From NCBI GenBank assembly GCA_018650645.1, contig JABIFP010000025.1, positions 7,976-71,975 on the forward strand: a DNA stretch of 64,000 nucleotides, in the 5' to 3' direction. Positions 3,650 to 10,019 of the stretch are shown one piece after another. Both the position numbers and the translations under genes were made by a program. This DNA is from Candidatus Magasanikiibacteriota bacterium (GTDB lineage: Bacteria > Patescibacteriota > Patescibacteriia > Magasanikbacterales > UBA922). Below the pieces are notes generated by a model that was given only the letters and a program-made list of their open reading frames with translations, made no database searches and was not told the origin of the DNA. Each line of letters begins with the position of its first letter. Positions within the stretch are counted from its first letter, which is position 1.

Positions 3650-3678
3650 AAACGGACCAATTGGTCCGTTTTTTTATT
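3650..3678. terminator. bidirectional rho-independent terminator between prfA (+) and the histidine kinase (-)
   Basis: aaaaacggaccaattggtccgttttttt is a perfect 7-bp stem with an AATT loop, flanked by A-run and T-run. Confidence 0.8.
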
Positions 3679-6151
3679 ACTCGTGTGTATCAGTTTCTGC
3701 ATTCAGTTTTTTACTCCCCTTTCTTTTTTTCATCCCAGCCTTTGGAATCTGCACATGAAACGAAGTACCCTTGTTTATAACGGACTCAAACCAAATTTTT
3801 CCACCAATCTGTTCCACAATTTCTTTAATAATATACAGCCCAAGGCCTGTTCCTTCAGTATCCTTTTCTCGCACATTATCTGCTCGGAATAGTTTTTCAA
3901 ATACCCGTTCATGCTGGCGCTTTGGAATTCCATATCCTGTATCGGTGATATCAAACTGCAACATATCCTTATTCATTTGCAGCAAGATCATAACACTCCC
4001 TTTAGCTGGCGTGTATTTAACTGCGTTATTCACCAAATTATGCAGTATAATTCGTAGTAAGGTTGGATCAGCTTGAATACTTGCCTTATGCTTAAACAAC
4101 GTTTTGACTAATAATTTCTTTGCCTTTATTTGTGGCGCCATTTCTTTTATTACCATCTTTATTTCTTCAACTACATCCATAAGCTTTGGATCGACAGAGA
4201 ATGTTCCCAATTCTAACCTTGATACATTAAGCAGAGAATTTACAAGCGATACCATACGCTGATTTCCTGCATATATTTCTTCAATATATACTTTTTGATC
4301 TTTAGACAACTTTCCAACGTCCCCGGCCAGCAGCATTTCGGTATACCAATTAATGGTAGACAGGGGTGTTCTAAGCTGATGAGAAGCAAGTGAAACAAAT
4401 TCCGTTTTCACCTTATCAACTTCTTTTTCTTTCGTAATATCACGAAGGACAATAATGCCACCAACAACTCCATTCTCTAATACAACAGGCGATGCAGTTA
4501 CGGCACCAGGGAACGTAGACTTGTCTTTACGTACAAATCTACTCACAAGCGAAACTCGTTCTTGCTTTATTAATGCTTGTGCCAATGCAGATTTGTTTTT
4601 TGGTACACGGACTCCCTTTTCGTCTATAGATACAAGTACATTAGACCAAGCCTTCCCTACTAATGAGGCTGTCTTATACCCCAAAATTTGCCTTGCCGCA
4701 TCATTTGCTAGAATAATACCCCCTTTCATATCAATAGCCAGTAACCCATCACCAATACTGCTTAAAATTGCTTCATCTTTTGCTTTCGCAGATGCTAAAC
4801 GATTTTTTTCCTCTTCTAAATCGTCCATAATATTGATGGTAGCAGAACGCGCCTGACGAAGCGATGCCGTTTGTACCTGTGTATCTTCTAAAATATTTAG
4901 CACCGCAAGTTTTGTTTGTTTTGCCAGTTGAAGTTGCTGATCGAGCTCTTTCGTTTTATGTTCTACCTGTTCTTCTAAAGAAGACTGTGCACCAATTATT
5001 GTATCTGCCAAGCTATTAAACGCCTGTGCTAGCGCTCCCACTTCATCTTTTGATGTAATTTTTGCGCGCGCTAGGTAATTTCCATTTTGAAGCGCTAATG
5101 CCATTTGTTTTAATCGAACAATTGGGTGTGCTAAACTTTCTGATATAAATAAGGCAACAATAATTGCGATAATACCAAATATGAGGATGAAAATAATAAG
5201 CTGATTTCTCGTACTGGTCACAACACCCAAGGCCTCATCTTCAGGAACTATTTCAAAAAACACCCATCGACGCTGTTGCTCACCTGCATCAACTTCCACT
5301 GATTGATATGCTATCGCGGCATTAATTTCTGGAACAAACTGTGCCCCTCCATTATTATTCTTAAATAGATCAGTTACGTCCTTTGAAAATTCTTTATGCA
5401 CAGAAAAACCCGTGTTTAAATCTGACTGTCCACCCCACTGTTTTGAGATATCTGGATGCAAAAAATAATATCCATCTTCGCTTATAAAATAATGCTTTCC
5501 TTTTTTGAGATTTGTATCATCAGTCTCCGATATAAACTGCAATAATATATCTGCTCGAATGTTAAGCACAATCAATCCAATTTGTTCACCGCTACCCTCG
5601 TCAAATACTGATGTACCATACCTAATGACGGGCTGCAGCGGAATTTGTAGTGTGGGTGGCACCCCTTCTTTGTTTAGGTCTAACTGTGATATATATAATT
5701 CTCCCTTTGCTTTTAAAAGAGTATCCTCAACATAGTACCTATCCCCCTTATACTGCAACTCTTGTTTATTAACGATATGCACGGACTCCCCATCAGAATC
5801 AACACGCACTACTTCATTTCCCTCTAGATCAATGAACCGAATCTGCGCATAGGCCTCATTAATCTCTGCGAGTGCAACAAACTGCTGTTCGAGAAGCTGC
5901 GTCCAGACGTCTACTTCCTCGGTAGTACTCTCAGCATTGCTATTGGAGCGAGCCTTATACAGTTCTTGCACTGCAGGATTTGAAGCAAGGTACAACGTAT
6001 CATGTTCAAACCCCATAAGAATTTGTTCAACTTCAAATTTATGAGAAGCCGTTTCAACCATCAAGTCTGAAAGTATAGATTCGAGCACAAGACCCTTTGT
6101 TATTCGAAATCCAAAAAAACCCGAGACCATCAAAGGCACAATCGTGATCAA
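3677..6151 (-). CDS. multi-domain sensor histidine kinase (TM, periplasmic dCache-like domain, TM, HAMP, coiled coil, PAS, HisKA, HATPase_c)
   Basis: H-box LASHQLRTPLSTINWYTEML. ATPase motifs NLVNNAVKYT, DTGYGIP and GTGLGLYI. A HAMP-like segment after the second TM. The start is ambiguous: TTG at 6151, or ATG at 6130. Confidence 0.9.
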   Translation of the reverse strand: MITIVPLMVSGFFGFRITKGLVLESILSDLMVETASHKFEVEQILMGFEHDTLYLASNPAVQELYKARSNSNAESTTEEVDVWTQLLEQQFVALAEINEAYAQIRFIDLEGNEVVRVDSDGESVHIVNKQELQYKGDRYYVEDTLLKAKGELYISQLDLNKEGVPPTLQIPLQPVIRYGTSVFDEGSGEQIGLIVLNIRADILLQFISETDDTNLKKGKHYFISEDGYYFLHPDISKQWGGQSDLNTGFSVHKEFSKDVTDLFKNNNGGAQFVPEINAAIAYQSVEVDAGEQQRRWVFFEIVPEDEALGVVTSTRNQLIIFILIFGIIAIIVALFISESLAHPIVRLKQMALALQNGNYLARAKITSKDEVGALAQAFNSLADTIIGAQSSLEEQVEHKTKELDQQLQLAKQTKLAVLNILEDTQVQTASLRQARSATINIMDDLEEEKNRLASAKAKDEAILSSIGDGLLAIDMKGGIILANDAARQILGYKTASLVGKAWSNVLVSIDEKGVRVPKNKSALAQALIKQERVSLVSRFVRKDKSTFPGAVTASPVVLENGVVGGIIVLRDITKEKEVDKVKTEFVSLASHQLRTPLSTINWYTEMLLAGDVGKLSKDQKVYIEEIYAGNQRMVSLVNSLLNVSRLELGTFSVDPKLMDVVEEIKMVIKEMAPQIKAKKLLVKTLFKHKASIQADPTLLRIILHNLVNNAVKYTPAKGSVMILLQMNKDMLQFDITDTGYGIPKRQHERVFEKLFRADNVREKDTEGTGLGLYIIKEIVEQIGGKIWFESVINKGTSFHVQIPKAGMKKRKGSKKLNAETDTHE

Positions 6152-6220
6152 AAAAATGATAACTGAAATTTTCGTTGATATCTTTCGAGAGAAAATCTGA
6201 GTCTCACCTTTTTTTGTGTC

Positions 6221-7543
6221 TTATGTTTTTTTATCATCTTTTTTACGTTTAACTGAAGATTTTTTCTTTATCTTAAGATCCTGGTTCTCCTTCTTCAGCT
6301 GAATCATACGAAGCTCTCTCTCAATCATAGTATCATTTAGCAATTCTGCTTCTTTCAATGCTTTCTGCGTTTTTTTCCTTTCTTCAACAAGTGTTTTTGT
6401 TTGCTGCTCTACCTTTGCGTCAATATTTACTCTTGCCTGGAACAATGCTTCAGTAAAACTATCTAATAAGTTACCTAGCCCTTCAATTTCATGTTCATTA
6501 TCATTATCAGATACCGGATGTGTTCCTCCACTCAAAATGTTTTTTCCTGTATGAATGATTTGTCGCAAATCTTTTCCAAGCAGTGTTCCTACAACATAGG
6601 AAACCCCTCCAAAAAAGAATATGATAAGCAAAGCCACAAGCAGAAGCTGAGAAATAAGAAATTGCGCTTGCTGGCTTATCTCATCCTTATTATATTCTGC
6701 CAAAAGACACCAGTCCATAGACGCAACATATGAATGCACACCGACAACAGGCACACCTCGATAACCTAAAAAGGTTTGTAATTTTGAATGTTGTTGTTCA
6801 AAATTATTTCTTTTAGAAAAGCAATCTTTTGCATTTTTAGTGGCTGATTCTTGAGACAAAATTGTAAGCTGATCGGGTTGAAATCTAGACGGACTAATCA
6901 TTAATAAACTGCTATTCACCAAATATGTTTCCCCTGTCACCCCCCATCCTTTACGCTCTTCAAGAATATCAAATAACTCCTGCTCTTTTAATTTTCCAAC
7001 AAGTACACCGACCACTTCATTATTACTATATATAGGCGTAGAGGCAAAAAGTGCTATATCAGCATCAAATTGCGTTTCTGAAATAGTATGTATATATGTG
7101 TTTTTTATCCCGTTTTCAAAAAGCTTTGTGTCAGCAAAGTCTCCTCCAAGGCTACCTACCACCGTCCCTGCAATCATTTGACCATCAGTGCTTAAAACAT
7201 ATAGTTCCTCGGCCAATGAAAATGTTGCAATTTTTTCTCGCCGTAAATAAGTTGATAATGCCCCTGAAGCACAATCCTCATTTTTGCTCGTTTCATCTAG
7301 TAAACACGATACTATTTTTGCATCTGCCGCTTGATCACCCATGCGCCCACGCACCAATGAAAAAAATGTTTGAATATGTTCATTTTTTACATGTGCCCCA
7401 AATGATAATTGTTCAAACGTTTTTCCTTCTATGTAATCCATCACTAATGTATAAAAAATTCCAGCACCACCAATAGTGAACACAGCCGTAAGTAAAACAA
7501 ACGGAATCATTATTTTTGCGCGAACACTGAACCCTCTTTTCAT
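6221..7543 (-). CDS. membrane sensor-like protein (TM, periplasmic Cache-like domain, TM, HAMP-like, coiled-coil tail). No output domain.
   Basis: N-terminal TM, then a Cache-like segment (GETYLVNSSLLMISP), a second TM and a HAMP-like linker. A C-terminal coiled coil ends in LNDTMIERELRMIQLKKENQ, then a K-rich tail. No kinase, GGDEF or MCP domain is present. Confidence 0.7.
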   Translation of the reverse strand: MKRGFSVRAKIMIPFVLLTAVFTIGGAGIFYTLVMDYIEGKTFEQLSFGAHVKNEHIQTFFSLVRGRMGDQAADAKIVSCLLDETSKNEDCASGALSTYLRREKIATFSLAEELYVLSTDGQMIAGTVVGSLGGDFADTKLFENGIKNTYIHTISETQFDADIALFASTPIYSNNEVVGVLVGKLKEQELFDILEERKGWGVTGETYLVNSSLLMISPSRFQPDQLTILSQESATKNAKDCFSKRNNFEQQHSKLQTFLGYRGVPVVGVHSYVASMDWCLLAEYNKDEISQQAQFLISQLLLVALLIIFFFGGVSYVVGTLLGKDLRQIIHTGKNILSGGTHPVSDNDNEHEIEGLGNLLDSFTEALFQARVNIDAKVEQQTKTLVEERKKTQKALKEAELLNDTMIERELRMIQLKKENQDLKIKKKSSVKRKKDDKKT

Positions 7544-7547
7544 ACAA

Positions 7548-8864
7548 TCACTTCTTTATATTTTTTTTGAAATCGGACAATCGTTTTTTCAACTCAATCA
7601 TTTTCAGCTCACGGCCAACCATAGTTTCATTAAGCCGTTCTGTCTCAAGTGATTTCTCTTCAATAACATGTCGATCCTTATCAGCTCTTTTCAATGCACG
7701 CTCTAATCGTTCTTTGTGCCCTTCCGCTTCCCTACGCAAATGATCCGCCTCTTCTTTGGCATGCTCAAGATCAAGTGTTTTAATTCTAAGTTCTGCAGTA
7801 ATATCACCCGCAAGTAACACAGCATTTGCCTTTGTTCTTGTAAATATATATAGAATACTCCCCACCAAAGATGCTACAAGCATTCCTGCTATAAATAACC
7901 ATATGGGTACCATTAATCCCTGTCTTCCTACCCAAAATTGCGGGGCCTCAAGAAATGTTATCTGCCATTCTCGTCCCCCCACATCGATTGACTGTTCGCT
8001 AACATATTGTGATACATATGCTCCATAATCTACAGAGGAATATACACTGCTATTAACAATAGCATCTAAACCTAAATCATTTACTTGCAACTTCAGCATT
8101 TTAGATACAGTATCTTGCTGCATCACTCCCTGAATAAATTCCTCCAAATGCACTATGAGTAACACATACCCATCTAATGCTTCTTTTCTTTGTTCAAGCG
8201 TATGTATTGACTTTTCTGATTGATAGACAGGAAGCGCAATCATCAGTTGCTGCTCTGAATTACCGTCTACCGAAGAAAGCATGGGCACTGTTGCTCTAGC
8301 GGTATTTGTGTCTCTTGCTTCTATAAGTGCCACTTTGCGCGCTTCATGTGTGGAAAGATCATATCCAAACTCTTCCTCCCGATTGTCTTCAGAAGAAATA
8401 TACGTCACCACATAATGAATATCGCTGCGAGATTCTGGATAAATTGAAAAATCTGGATATCCTTCTTCATGTAAACTGGTATCTTCTCTTACTGAAAGCT
8501 CAAACGCTTCTTTTTGTTCATTAGAAACAACTTGCACATACTCAATAGCCTGTATACCTTGTAGACGTTCATCAATAGCTAACGCTTCCACAAATGCATG
8601 CCACTCATCTCGTTCAACGGCCTCACTTGCGGCAAATAATCCCCGCAAGTTATATAACACATCCACATAATCCCCTGCCACGTTTTCTACGTGAACACGC
8701 GCTTGTGTTGCCTGCTGCTGAAACTCAAGCTGTAATATTTCATCGGCTTGCTGTTGCGCAGCACTATATAACAAAGCACTCGCCAATGCGAGCACTAAAA
8801 ACGCACCAATGGCAAGCACGTTTCCAAGTACCACGGATTGCTTTGAAGCAATACGTTTTTTCAT
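7548..8864 (-). CDS. membrane sensor-like protein (TM, periplasmic CHASE-like domain, TM, coiled-coil tail). No output domain.
   Basis: The periplasmic region resembles CHASE (EWHAFVEAL...IQAIEYVQVV...EFGYDLSTHEARKVALIEARDT). The C-terminal coiled coil ends in LNETMVGRELKMIELKKRL, paralogous to the tail of the 6221-7543 product. Confidence 0.7.
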   Translation of the reverse strand: MKKRIASKQSVVLGNVLAIGAFLVLALASALLYSAAQQQADEILQLEFQQQATQARVHVENVAGDYVDVLYNLRGLFAASEAVERDEWHAFVEALAIDERLQGIQAIEYVQVVSNEQKEAFELSVREDTSLHEEGYPDFSIYPESRSDIHYVVTYISSEDNREEEFGYDLSTHEARKVALIEARDTNTARATVPMLSSVDGNSEQQLMIALPVYQSEKSIHTLEQRKEALDGYVLLIVHLEEFIQGVMQQDTVSKMLKLQVNDLGLDAIVNSSVYSSVDYGAYVSQYVSEQSIDVGGREWQITFLEAPQFWVGRQGLMVPIWLFIAGMLVASLVGSILYIFTRTKANAVLLAGDITAELRIKTLDLEHAKEEADHLRREAEGHKERLERALKRADKDRHVIEEKSLETERLNETMVGRELKMIELKKRLSDFKKNIKK

Positions 8865-8921: not shown

Positions 8922-9164
8922 TTAATTCTTTTCTTGGTCTGTTAGTTCAACAATATGTGTATCACCAAATGTCACTTTTGTATACCAATCCTTTTGGCAA
9001 TGCGGACACCGCGACTGAAATGCGATACTCCCATTTTTTTTACAATCAATATCCTTCATAATAAAGAGTACCCCTCTGCATGCTTTGCAATGCACAAGTG
9101 GATGCTCCGGATCTATTGTGGTATACGAATGATACATACTTCTTTTTTCTACGAAAAAGCCCAC
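8922..9164 (-). CDS. small zinc-ribbon-like protein (CxxC...CxxC), hypothetical
   Basis: An 80-aa ORF with CKAC...CPHC pairs. It sits between the receiver gene and the sensor genes on the same strand. The start may be the internal M at ~9137. Confidence 0.35.
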   Translation of the reverse strand: MGFFVEKRSMYHSYTTIDPEHPLVHCKACRGVLFIMKDIDCKKNGSIAFQSRCPHCQKDWYTKVTFGDTHIVELTDQEKN

Positions 9165-9216: not shown

Positions 9217-9624
9217 TTATACTTGCTGAATCCCGAGCGTCTGCTTCACATCATCAATAATTTGCTCGAGTTTATTTGTTGCCTTTACATAATACTCTAC
9301 AACTCCAAGTTTTAAGTATTGCTGCACTTTGTCATCACTTGCGGTATTTGATACCACAAATATTGGAATTGCCTGATACTGTGCTCCTGAACCCTTCAGT
9401 TTGACTACCAAATCAAGCCCACTCTCCTGCCCTAATAAATAATGATCCAGCCAAATGGCCTGGATGGTCGTGTCTTCACTCAAAGCAGTCTCAGCTTCTG
9501 CCACAGAGCGTACTCCGACAGCTGTGAGTCCTGATCTTTCAAGCTTTTGTGTAATTGCCTTTTGTAGTGGAATTTCATCTTCCACAACAAGGACCTTTGG
9601 CCCCGAATGTGATTGTGTACTCAT
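9217..9624 (-). CDS. single-domain response regulator (CheY-like receiver)
   Basis: VLVVEDE is the acidic pair. IWLDHYL carries the phospho-acceptor Asp, VVSNTAS the Thr and YYVKAT the Lys. There is no output domain. Confidence 0.85.
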   Translation of the reverse strand: MSTQSHSGPKVLVVEDEIPLQKAITQKLERSGLTAVGVRSVAEAETALSEDTTIQAIWLDHYLLGQESGLDLVVKLKGSGAQYQAIPIFVVSNTASDDKVQQYLKLGVVEYYVKATNKLEQIIDDVKQTLGIQQV

Positions 9625-9713: not shown

Positions 9714-10019
9714 CTACCGAGGCTGCTTGCGCTCACCAAGTAATTGTAACTTCTCAGTAATTTGTGCCTCAACATCCACTCCACTTAATCGCGCTAAAAT
9801 AAGTATATCAAAGAGCGCATCAATAATTTCTTCATGCAAATTTTGCTCACTATACTTTTCAGATCCGATTGATTCATTAAATAACTGCCGAGCTATTTCC
9901 CCAATTTCCTCTTGCAGATGAATAAAAGCATCTTCCTTACGAGGCCCCTCATTTGGTGAATGTGCCCATCGCTTGTTCACGATGACCATTACTTGATCTG
10001 TAATATTTGATATATCCAT
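9714..10019 (-). CDS. MazG-like nucleotide pyrophosphohydrolase family protein
   Basis: A ~100-aa all-helical product with EExxE-type motifs (LQEEIGEIARQL; LHEEIIDALFDILILA), typical of the MazG/NTP-PPase fold. Confidence 0.6.
   Translation of the reverse strand: MDISNITDQVMVIVNKRWAHSPNEGPRKEDAFIHLQEEIGEIARQLFNESIGSEKYSEQNLHEEIIDALFDILILARLSGVDVEAQITEKLQLLGERKQPR

Follow-up and report, generated by a model that had tools for sequence, protein, structure and literature searches.

Two neighbouring sensor genes in a 64,000-nucleotide stretch of a Candidatus Magasanikiibacteriota genome (contig JABIFP010000025.1, positions 7,976 to 71,975; this whole stretch is hereafter called the window) encode proteins that have no output domain and end in the same short helical tail. 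The best reading of the evidence is that both are stand-alone input modules of a multi-protein two-component system. Sensor 1 (7548..8864, minus strand, 438 amino acids) consists of a transmembrane helix, a CHASE domain, a second transmembrane helix and one long cytoplasmic helix ending in the tail. Sensor 2 (6221..7543, minus strand, 440 amino acids) consists of a transmembrane helix, a dCache domain, a second transmembrane helix, a HAMP-like helix-loop-helix, a coiled coil and the tail. They are followed on the same strand by a partner histidine kinase (3677..6196), which carries two copies of a second motif, the box, in its coiled coil. Comparison across many genomes leads us to think it probable, though well short of certain, that stand-alone sensors of this kind dock by their tails onto the coil that bears the box in the adjacent effector, whose output they modulate.

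Sensor 1 was matched by the Pfam CHASE model (PF03924) over residues 82-264, with 128.3 bits (cutoff 25) and E = 4e-37. Its AlphaFold2 (AF2) model, with a predicted local distance difference test score (pLDDT) of 82.5, has an N-terminal membrane helix, an alpha/beta domain and an uninterrupted helix at residues 315-437. In Foldseek searches this model matched solved CHASE domains, namely those of PcrK (6k62; E = 5.6e-17, template modelling score 0.84 on the target) and AHK4 (3t4j). Sensor 2 had a partial match to dCache_1 (PF02743) over residues 112-219, under the cutoff (30.2 bits against 45; E = 4.3e-7), and its homologues bear PF02743. Its AF2 model (pLDDT 78) shows the fold known from solved dCache domains, two PAS-like units in the periplasm carried by a long N-terminal helix, and matched the domains of DctB (3e4p), PctA (5t65), Tlp3 and Mlp24 at E = 1e-10 to 1e-12. 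Further matches were McpB and models of full-length Bacillus chemoreceptors. After the second transmembrane helix, helices at residues 286-337 and 352-424 are joined by a 14-residue loop in a HAMP-like arrangement; Pfam gave no HAMP match at E <= 1, and homologues at 22-26% identity are annotated with HAMP (PF00672). There is also a weak NCBIfam match to SiaA over residues 238-398.

A preliminary description of this DNA, made from the sequence alone, had reported two open reading frames (ORFs) 4 nucleotides (nt) apart, each encoding a sensor between two transmembrane helices, and had quoted a motif that they share; all of this is present as described. Its assignment of the sensor types also stands, for CHASE through Pfam and for dCache through the matches of the AF2 model, given that the Pfam score is sub-threshold. 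The same is true of its claim that neither protein has an output domain, as Pfam and NCBIfam scans found no kinase, cyclase, phosphodiesterase or methyl-accepting chemotaxis protein (MCP) domain in either. At E <= 1, Pfam gave no match to HisKA, to any other dimerisation and histidine phosphotransfer (DHp) domain or to HATPase_c, and MCPsignal (PF00015) had no Pfam match in either sensor. With a cytoplasmic part of about 100 residues of single helix in the AF2 models, both sensors are too short for the hairpin bundle of an MCP.

The two proteins had also been called paralogous. This is valid for the tail only, since BLASTP aligned no other region of the two sensors; over the tail, 22/53 residues are identical (E = 2e-6). 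On this alignment, the two sensors are sharers of one module and not whole-protein paralogues. In sensor 1 the tail module covers residues 401-433 (LETERLNETMVGRELKMIELKKRLSDFK; 7566..7664, minus strand), as defined by the BLASTP match, a score of 65.8 bits against the tail profile and the family logo. In sensor 2 it covers residues 392-424 (LKEAELLNDTMIERELRMIQLKKENQDLK; 6272..6370, minus strand), as defined by BLASTP, a motif scan and the logo.

About 33 residues long, the conserved tail module reads ELERLNxxMVGRELKMIELKKEI, and 249 sequences gave the consensus L..+..ELE+LN..MVGRELKMIELKKEI..LK. Among 99 diverse proteins R, E and K never vary, and conservation exceeds 90% at N, M, L, M, E and L. 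The helix has hydrophobic residues at seven-residue spacing, with the invariant Arg at a core position, and the logo shows extra conserved hydrophobics outside the a/d core (V1, L5 and I8) as well as basic residues. The tail contains no histidine. Both window sensors fit the core [M][VI]xRE[LV][KR]M[IV][EQ]LK after E-L-E-x-L-N, at most about 40 residues from the C-terminus, with input domains only (CHASE or dCache) ahead of it and an effector carrying an A-x-L-N-[ILV]-[LM]-E-D box downstream.

No Pfam or NCBIfam model covers the tail, and a profile search of PDB sequences found no chain that contains it. A word-indexed search with the two window tails alone gave no match; what found the family was an exhaustive search with a profile of five tail sequences against 1.84 billion cluster representatives, which returned 6,588 matches at E <= 0.001. 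The names of the matched protein clusters and the source annotations are generic. Scanning one genome per species with a back-translated pattern gave more than 599 tail matches, of which 455 were confirmed. Homologues of the two sensors keep the tail as well: the closest CHASE relatives of similar length (P0002 and P0004) and a CHASE-GAF protein (P0005) all end ...MVGRELKM[IV]ELK..., and the same motif also ends P0161, a protein of a DPANN archaeal genome that is the closest dCache-HAMP relative of similar length. Its retention in the CHASE homologues, together with the 6,588 profile matches, argues that the tail is more than a chance coiled coil. The family extends over many lineages of the candidate phyla radiation (CPR), Gammaproteobacteria, Bacteroidota, Nitrospirota, Omnitrophota, Deltaproteobacteria, one Methanobacteriota genome and one DPANN genome.

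The position of the tail is also conserved. It ends 9-38 residues ahead of the stop codon in 92 of 94 ORFs from the genome loci, and its median distance to the C-terminus among the top cluster representatives is 13 residues. Where the tail is not terminal, either a further helical stretch of about 80 residues follows it or another sensor with its own tail. The conserved extension, ...DGI.LEED[IV]...LLSDS.RHEQAL.DL, was seen in P0120, P0126 and P0131, at 4440-4973 of locus L019 and at 5182-6348 of locus L034, while sensor-tail-sensor-tail repeats were seen in P0021, P0082 and P0030. Many CPR tails are followed by low-complexity ends rich in Lys, Asn and Gly (KNGNGKNGNHKNG...; loci L011, L022, L026, L028, L047, L058 and L063), and the window sensors terminate in Lys-rich stretches (KKKSSVKRKKDDKKT).

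We also determined what precedes the tail. In 99 representatives of at least 150 amino acids, the domains ahead of it were PAS (47), HAMP (26), dCache_1 (11), CHASE4 (6), CHASE (5) and GAF (4), along with MASE1, MASE6, CBS, VUPS, REC and others, all of which are input modules. A kinase core was found in none of 147 representative tail proteins and none of 111 tail ORFs from the loci; the tail takes the architectural place of the output domain. The 109 tail genes in 83 loci encode 62 membrane proteins and 47 soluble proteins. One locus (L016, 3122-9397) has three consecutive tail proteins, with the architectures REC-PAS-GAF-tail, 5TMR_LYT-PAS-tail and beta-propeller (Reg_prop/Y_Y_Y)-PAS-PAS-tail. 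Beta-propeller inputs of the Reg_prop/Y_Y_Y type are typical of Bacteroidetes hybrid two-component sensors.

The window kinase is complete: between and after its two transmembrane helices, Pfam recognised a HK_sensor_dom_bact/dCache-like sensor, HAMP, PAS, HisKA and HATPase_c, which bears out the earlier claim of a full downstream sensor kinase with a dCache-like sensor of its own. In the coiled coil between HAMP and PAS it has two tandem boxes (4796..4924, minus strand; from a motif scan and a logo of 47 partner kinases). These are KLAVLNILEDTQ (N419) and SATINIMDDLEEEK (N440), with the core sequences LAVLNILED and ATINIMDDLEEEK, and they lie 21 residues, or exactly three heptads, apart. The tandem boxes are the proposed docking site of the tails. 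The general box consensus, found in the coiled coil ahead of the kinase PAS, is L-E-x-x-K-x-A-x-L-N-[ILV]-[LM]-E-D, then acidic residues; the helix has a dense hydrophobic patch, A-x-L-N-I-L, before this acidic run. The Ala does not vary in the 47 collected box regions; N and the final D are fixed by the regular expression itself. A profile search of PDB sequences found no chain containing the box. Homology between tail and box is not favoured by their heptad registers, which differ around the conserved Asn.

To see the genes in context, we examined 80 genome loci, which were the best matches to a CPR-derived query. A same-strand histidine kinase lies downstream of the last tail gene in 61 of 83 loci, at a distance of at most 50 nt in 41 and overlapping in 21. 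Many of the intervening genes encode further sensors with variant tails, such as LTGRELKM and MIGREIRM. There is one tail gene per cluster in 62 loci, two in 17 and three to four in 4. The box is present in 47 of the 58 kinases downstream of tail genes, compared with 3 of the 14 other kinases of the same loci (Fisher p = 4.9e-5). Across the examined loci, no tail protein bears the box and no kinase bears the tail. All 55 partner kinases that were aligned are of the HisKA/HATPase_c type, mostly with PAS, and have a common EFVSxASHQLRTPL phospho-acceptor region. There are also soluble partner kinases, in which the box lies 25-90 residues after the N-terminus and PAS is the only sensor.

The gene order of the window recurs as well. 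Three genes for CHASE relatives (L006, L007 and L008) each lie directly upstream of a gene for a PAS-containing sensor, which in L006 and L007 is a complete kinase with PAS, HisKA and HATPase_c. In L008, CHASE-tail comes first, then soluble PAS-PAS-tail and then a membrane sensor of the window-kinase type, ended by the contig edge. The archaeal locus L089 has PAS-tail, an NMT1-family binding-protein gene, dCache-HAMP-tail and a dCache-HAMP kinase. Two tail sensors followed by a kinase are thus found again in L008, and in L089 with the NMT1-family gene between the sensors.

For the reverse test, we scanned metagenome contigs for K.A[ILMV]LNILED, a pattern about a quarter of whose matches were out-of-frame chance matches. 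Within the NILED box subtype that this pattern samples, 22 matches fell in a kinase ORF preceded by no less than 1.5 kb of contig, and for 18 of these a same-strand tail gene lies upstream, in several cases at a distance of just tens of nt. The linkage of tail and box therefore holds in both directions, at about 80%. The box itself is found on other effectors. In a deltaproteobacterial locus (L062, 5140-8221), a tail gene overlaps the gene of a soluble protein with an N-terminal box helix followed by PAS, GAF and an HD-GYP-type domain, and at L061 (3716-5890) a box stands ahead of a HisKA_2/HWE hybrid kinase with a tail gene near. These two cases indicate that the box is a transferable input socket and not a peculiarity of one kinase family, and that the connector is not confined to HisKA kinases.

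These observations suggest a mechanism. Each sensor corresponds in build to the front half of a sensor kinase, having a ligand-binding domain in the periplasm, an anchor in the membrane and a coiled coil for signalling, with the tail in place of a kinase. Ligand-induced helix movements would pass down the coiled coil of the sensor dimer into the tail. The tail would pack on the box helices of the kinase in a multi-helix bundle and so modulate autophosphorylation, and the phosphoryl group would go to a stand-alone REC protein. In the window, a CHASE input, a dCache input and the dCache-like input of the kinase itself would converge on a single kinase. The conserved faces beyond the a/d core, the basic tail and the acidic run after the box fit a bundle in which more than two helices pack with complementary charges. 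In membrane-anchored pairs, the tail lies about 70-85 residues from the last transmembrane helix and the box 82-94 (51 and 50 in L006). Translational coupling of the genes is also frequent. As a speculation, the fact that tail and box are adjacent in gene order and never fused in the examined proteins would fit a parallel intermolecular bundle.

The preliminary description had suggested that the tail could be a docking or signalling helix that feeds the downstream kinase. Comparative evidence now speaks for this, in the form of a terminal module, synteny, the box in 47/58 downstream kinases and the reverse result of 18/22, with physical docking as the presumed step beyond it. Its related suggestion of three inputs on one kinase has gained from the comparative genomics of the tail-kinase loci, and the convergence itself is something we infer.

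The same data can be read differently. The sensors may partner with the kinase, with the tail being a mere homodimerisation zipper or terminal cap; the signal would then be transferred through the transmembrane helices, HAMP, PAS or DHp, and the box would be an internal signalling element of the kinase. Strong synteny says nothing on which surfaces touch, both motifs sit in coiled coils that must dimerise anyway, and the numbers of tails and boxes are not one to one. Three observations make this explanation unlikely in our view. First, soluble PAS-tail proteins without any membrane part are common, and because 47/109 tail proteins are soluble, transmembrane contacts cannot be the general coupling route. 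Second, the conservation of the tail exceeds the needs of a zipper, both in its invariant R, E and K and in its conserved non-core hydrophobics. Third, the box is found right at the N-terminus of effectors that otherwise lack a sensor, and in combination with different outputs, always adjoining tail genes.

Several other gene families occur at the tail loci. Genes for a type IV pilus or type II secretion system follow the kinase and REC genes in 11-13 of the 83 loci, mostly in CPR. This set consists of a PilB-like ATPase with MshEN, a PilC-like platform protein and a pilin with an N_methyl motif, and was found in L006 (12390-17092), L007, L013, L030, L040, L044, L045, L051, L053, L057, L065, L072 and L082. 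Their position after kinase and REC suggests that pilus control is one output of the system; no pilus genes lie beside the operon in the window. Loci of the Bacteroidota type have a CheR methyltransferase gene (PF01739, 1e-44) between the tail genes and the kinase (L016 9407-10228, L020 9411-10235 and L038 1241-2092; also L043 and L061). The tails in these CheR loci bear an extra conserved C-terminal peptide, ...G..(E/K)KY[IV]IHE, which recalls the C-terminal peptide that tethers CheR to chemoreceptors.

One could therefore ask whether the tail addresses one of these other partners (REC, type IV pilus components or CheR-like methyltransferases), so that the sensors would act beside the kinase. 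REC-only genes are present in most loci, and the PilB/PilC-like genes (11-13/83 loci) and the CheR genes lying between tail genes and kinase in Bacteroidota loci could be taken in the same sense. Yet REC, pilus and CheR genes are all less constant than the box-bearing effector, and a partner of this kind gives no account of the co-occurrence of tail and box in both directions. A REC gene beside a kinase is, moreover, ordinary two-component organisation. We consider such a partner improbable, and docking of the tail onto the box remains the explanation that we prefer.

The junction between sensor 2 and the kinase requires some care. The two ORFs are in frame, with a single TAA (6223-6221) between them, and no ATG, GTG or TTG follows for 23 codons, up to a TTG at 6151. 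This pattern might be expected if the sensors were remnants, whether truncated or decaying kinases, an assembly or frameshift artefact, or the read-through front part of the kinase ORF. The TTG at 6151 is the start of the kinase ORF as listed, and gene callers picked later ATGs (giving 817 or 803 amino acids); with this TTG as start, the first membrane helix would lose half of its length. An ATT at 6196 stands 7 nt behind a Shine-Dalgarno-like AAGGTGA (6210-6204), and the N-terminus that it would give (MFSRKISTKISVIIFLITIVPLMVSGFFGF...) would be normal. In view of this Shine-Dalgarno-like sequence and of the intact first transmembrane helix, as opposed to the half-lost helix from TTG 6151, the true start of the kinase is probably the rare ATT at 6196.

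The kinase has its own N-terminal transmembrane helix, Shine-Dalgarno sequence and probable ATT start, which argues against remnants. The stop codon and the sensor 2/kinase junction are identical across four independent assemblies, tail and stop codon are kept in hundreds of loci in which the reading frames vary and often overlap, and thousands of family members end at the tail. The locus of the operon was assembled from many marine samples, and an identical protein in NCBI stands under a 'Candidatus Magasanikbacteria' genome, which is of a CPR lineage. The CHASE protein (sensor 1) was found on 23 contigs. The identical junction and these 23 contigs rule out a frameshift or sequencing error, and no lost kinase fusion, of the kind that the preliminary description had envisaged, was found. 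A fusion of sensor 2 to the kinase by read-through or frameshift was likewise dismissed, given the four assemblies and the frames that vary between loci. That the sensors are remnants in any of these senses is very improbable.

Some observations weigh against the proposal that tails dock onto boxes. The tail of sensor 2 itself is divergent, since two near-invariant positions of the family depart from the consensus there (G->E and E->Q). For about 10-20% of tail genes, no kinase lies inside about 6 kb, and 11 of the 58 downstream kinases lack the box under the regular expression used. The count of tail genes does not match the count of boxes, and 11 clusters with two tails have one box. The similar distances of tail and box from the membrane could reflect common ancestry of a transmembrane-HAMP-coil scaffold. 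As the loci were picked as best matches to a CPR query, the proportions given for them may differ in other lineages. Finally, no solved structure contains either motif, and we infer the physical contact between tail and box, its geometry, the sign of the regulation and the role of REC as acceptor.

The window has two boxes and two tail sensors, and a simple rule by which the number of boxes equals that of tail genes was tried and fails across the loci. The match in the window may be a coincidence. Alternatively, each window sensor might have its own box site, the helix of the HAMP-less CHASE protein being longer than the post-HAMP helix of sensor 2.

The two sensors and the kinase belong to a single, tightly spaced string of minus-strand genes. 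At its head is a stand-alone REC receiver (9217..9624, minus strand; Pfam Response_reg 1.2e-10), probably the protein that accepts the phosphoryl group from the kinase; at most related loci, REC-only genes stand beside the kinases. Between REC and sensor 1 lies a small ORF of 80 amino acids (8922..9164, minus strand) with a CxxC ... CxxC pattern, zinc ribbon-like. It has no significant family in Pfam or NCBIfam, some gene callers prefer an ORF on the opposite strand, and its membership of the sensor system is uncertain. Directly upstream of REC and on the same strand is a small MazG-like pyrophosphohydrolase ORF (9714-10019, minus strand; Pfam 2.5e-4, just under the cutoff).

In a broader reading, tail and box would form a hitherto unrecognised, portable plug-and-socket connector that joins free-standing sensors with nearly any kind of input, membrane-bound or soluble, to a class I histidine kinase in trans, and occasionally to other effectors, HD-GYP phosphodiesterases being an example. 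We hold this to be evenly poised between right and wrong. It would include a chemoreceptor-like logic of many receptors and one kinase outside chemotaxis, especially common in the reduced genomes of CPR and DPANN and accompanied by CheR in some Bacteroidota, a part which could equally well go either way. Input-only sensor proteins are common in genome annotations, usually as 'PAS domain S-box protein' or 'hypothetical', and if the connector is real, thousands of these orphan sensors would gain a predicted partner and role. A single kinase would combine several signals of different chemistry by way of interchangeable modules. Sense could be made of the minimal signalling repertoire of CPR and DPANN, which are host-dependent organisms with loci often linked to type IV pilus genes, and a short connector of two helices would lend itself naturally to the rewiring of synthetic two-component systems. 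Short peptides and soluble PAS-tail proteins offer a direct way of testing the docking of tail and box.

Of the known systems, the MCP-CheW-CheA arrangement has the same general plan, with separate sensors, highly variable inputs and one conserved helical cytoplasmic module, and with several sensors feeding one separately encoded kinase. The CheR genes between tail genes and kinase in some Bacteroidota loci are a further likeness. The signalling domain of MCPs (PF00015), however, is a hairpin four-helix bundle of about 300 residues that depends on CheW and is coupled to CheA, a class II kinase. The tail module consists of one terminal helix, about 33 residues in length, without a PF00015 match, and its partner is a class I HisKA/HATPase_c kinase, usually with its own sensor. 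No CheW was noted in the annotated tail loci, among which no systematic search for it was made.

The signalling helix or S-helix, attributed to Anantharaman, Balaji and Aravind in 2006, is reportedly a parallel coiled coil of about 40 residues that links two domains of one protein and has a central E-R-T signature. It follows transmembrane helices or HAMP and has conserved polar residues in its core. An S-helix-like stretch (KVEQQTKTL, QVEHKTKEL) does occur in both window sensors and in the kinase, shortly ahead of the tail or box. The tail differs from it in being the end of a protein, in its signature N..MVGRELKMIELKK (GRELKM) and in being paired with a motif on another protein. By this definition it is not an S-helix, being terminal and not a linker, and the VEQQTKTL stretch upstream is, as read from the sequence, a separate element.

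Auxiliary sensors of three-component systems include UhpC-UhpB, LuxP-LuxQ, TorT-TorS, YycHI-WalK, BceAB-BceS and QseG-QseE. Their known members are transporters, periplasmic binding proteins, lipoproteins or small membrane proteins, and every one is dedicated to a single kinase family. We know of none that has been described as a kinase-like scaffold of sensor, transmembrane helix, HAMP and coil, with a common docking helix on dozens of input types across phyla. In such systems an extra, separately encoded protein perceives the signal and controls the histidine kinase by direct contact (PMC12691602, PMC8534201). The tail sensors resemble them as separately encoded, signal-perceiving proteins that are proposed to control a histidine kinase.

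RetS and LadS modulate the kinase GacS as separate sensors through direct helix-helix heteromerisation, and there, too, several inputs meet on one kinase (PMC5992135). Unlike the tail sensors, which have neither DHp nor catalytic and ATP-binding (CA) domains, RetS and LadS have complete DHp/CA and receiver domains and contact GacS through them (PMC5992135). Split histidine kinases also spread the functions of a sensor kinase over separately encoded polypeptides, but they are split between the DHp and CA parts of the kinase core (PMC3591291; Hik36-Hik43, PMC7656254). In the window kinase, HisKA and HATPase_c are in one chain, and it is the input modules that are separate. In its logic the tail-box system is close to chemoreceptors that feed CheA and to the auxiliaries of three-component systems; its parts agree in no defining feature with MCPs, split kinases, RetS-type pseudokinases or the S-helix. 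The preliminary description could assign the arrangement to no described family, and we agree: neither tail nor box is described in Pfam, NCBIfam, PDB or the literature searched, although absence there is not proof of novelty. Among these systems, the tail and box would be placed with the auxiliary sensors of two-component systems, as auxiliaries built on an apparently undescribed connector.

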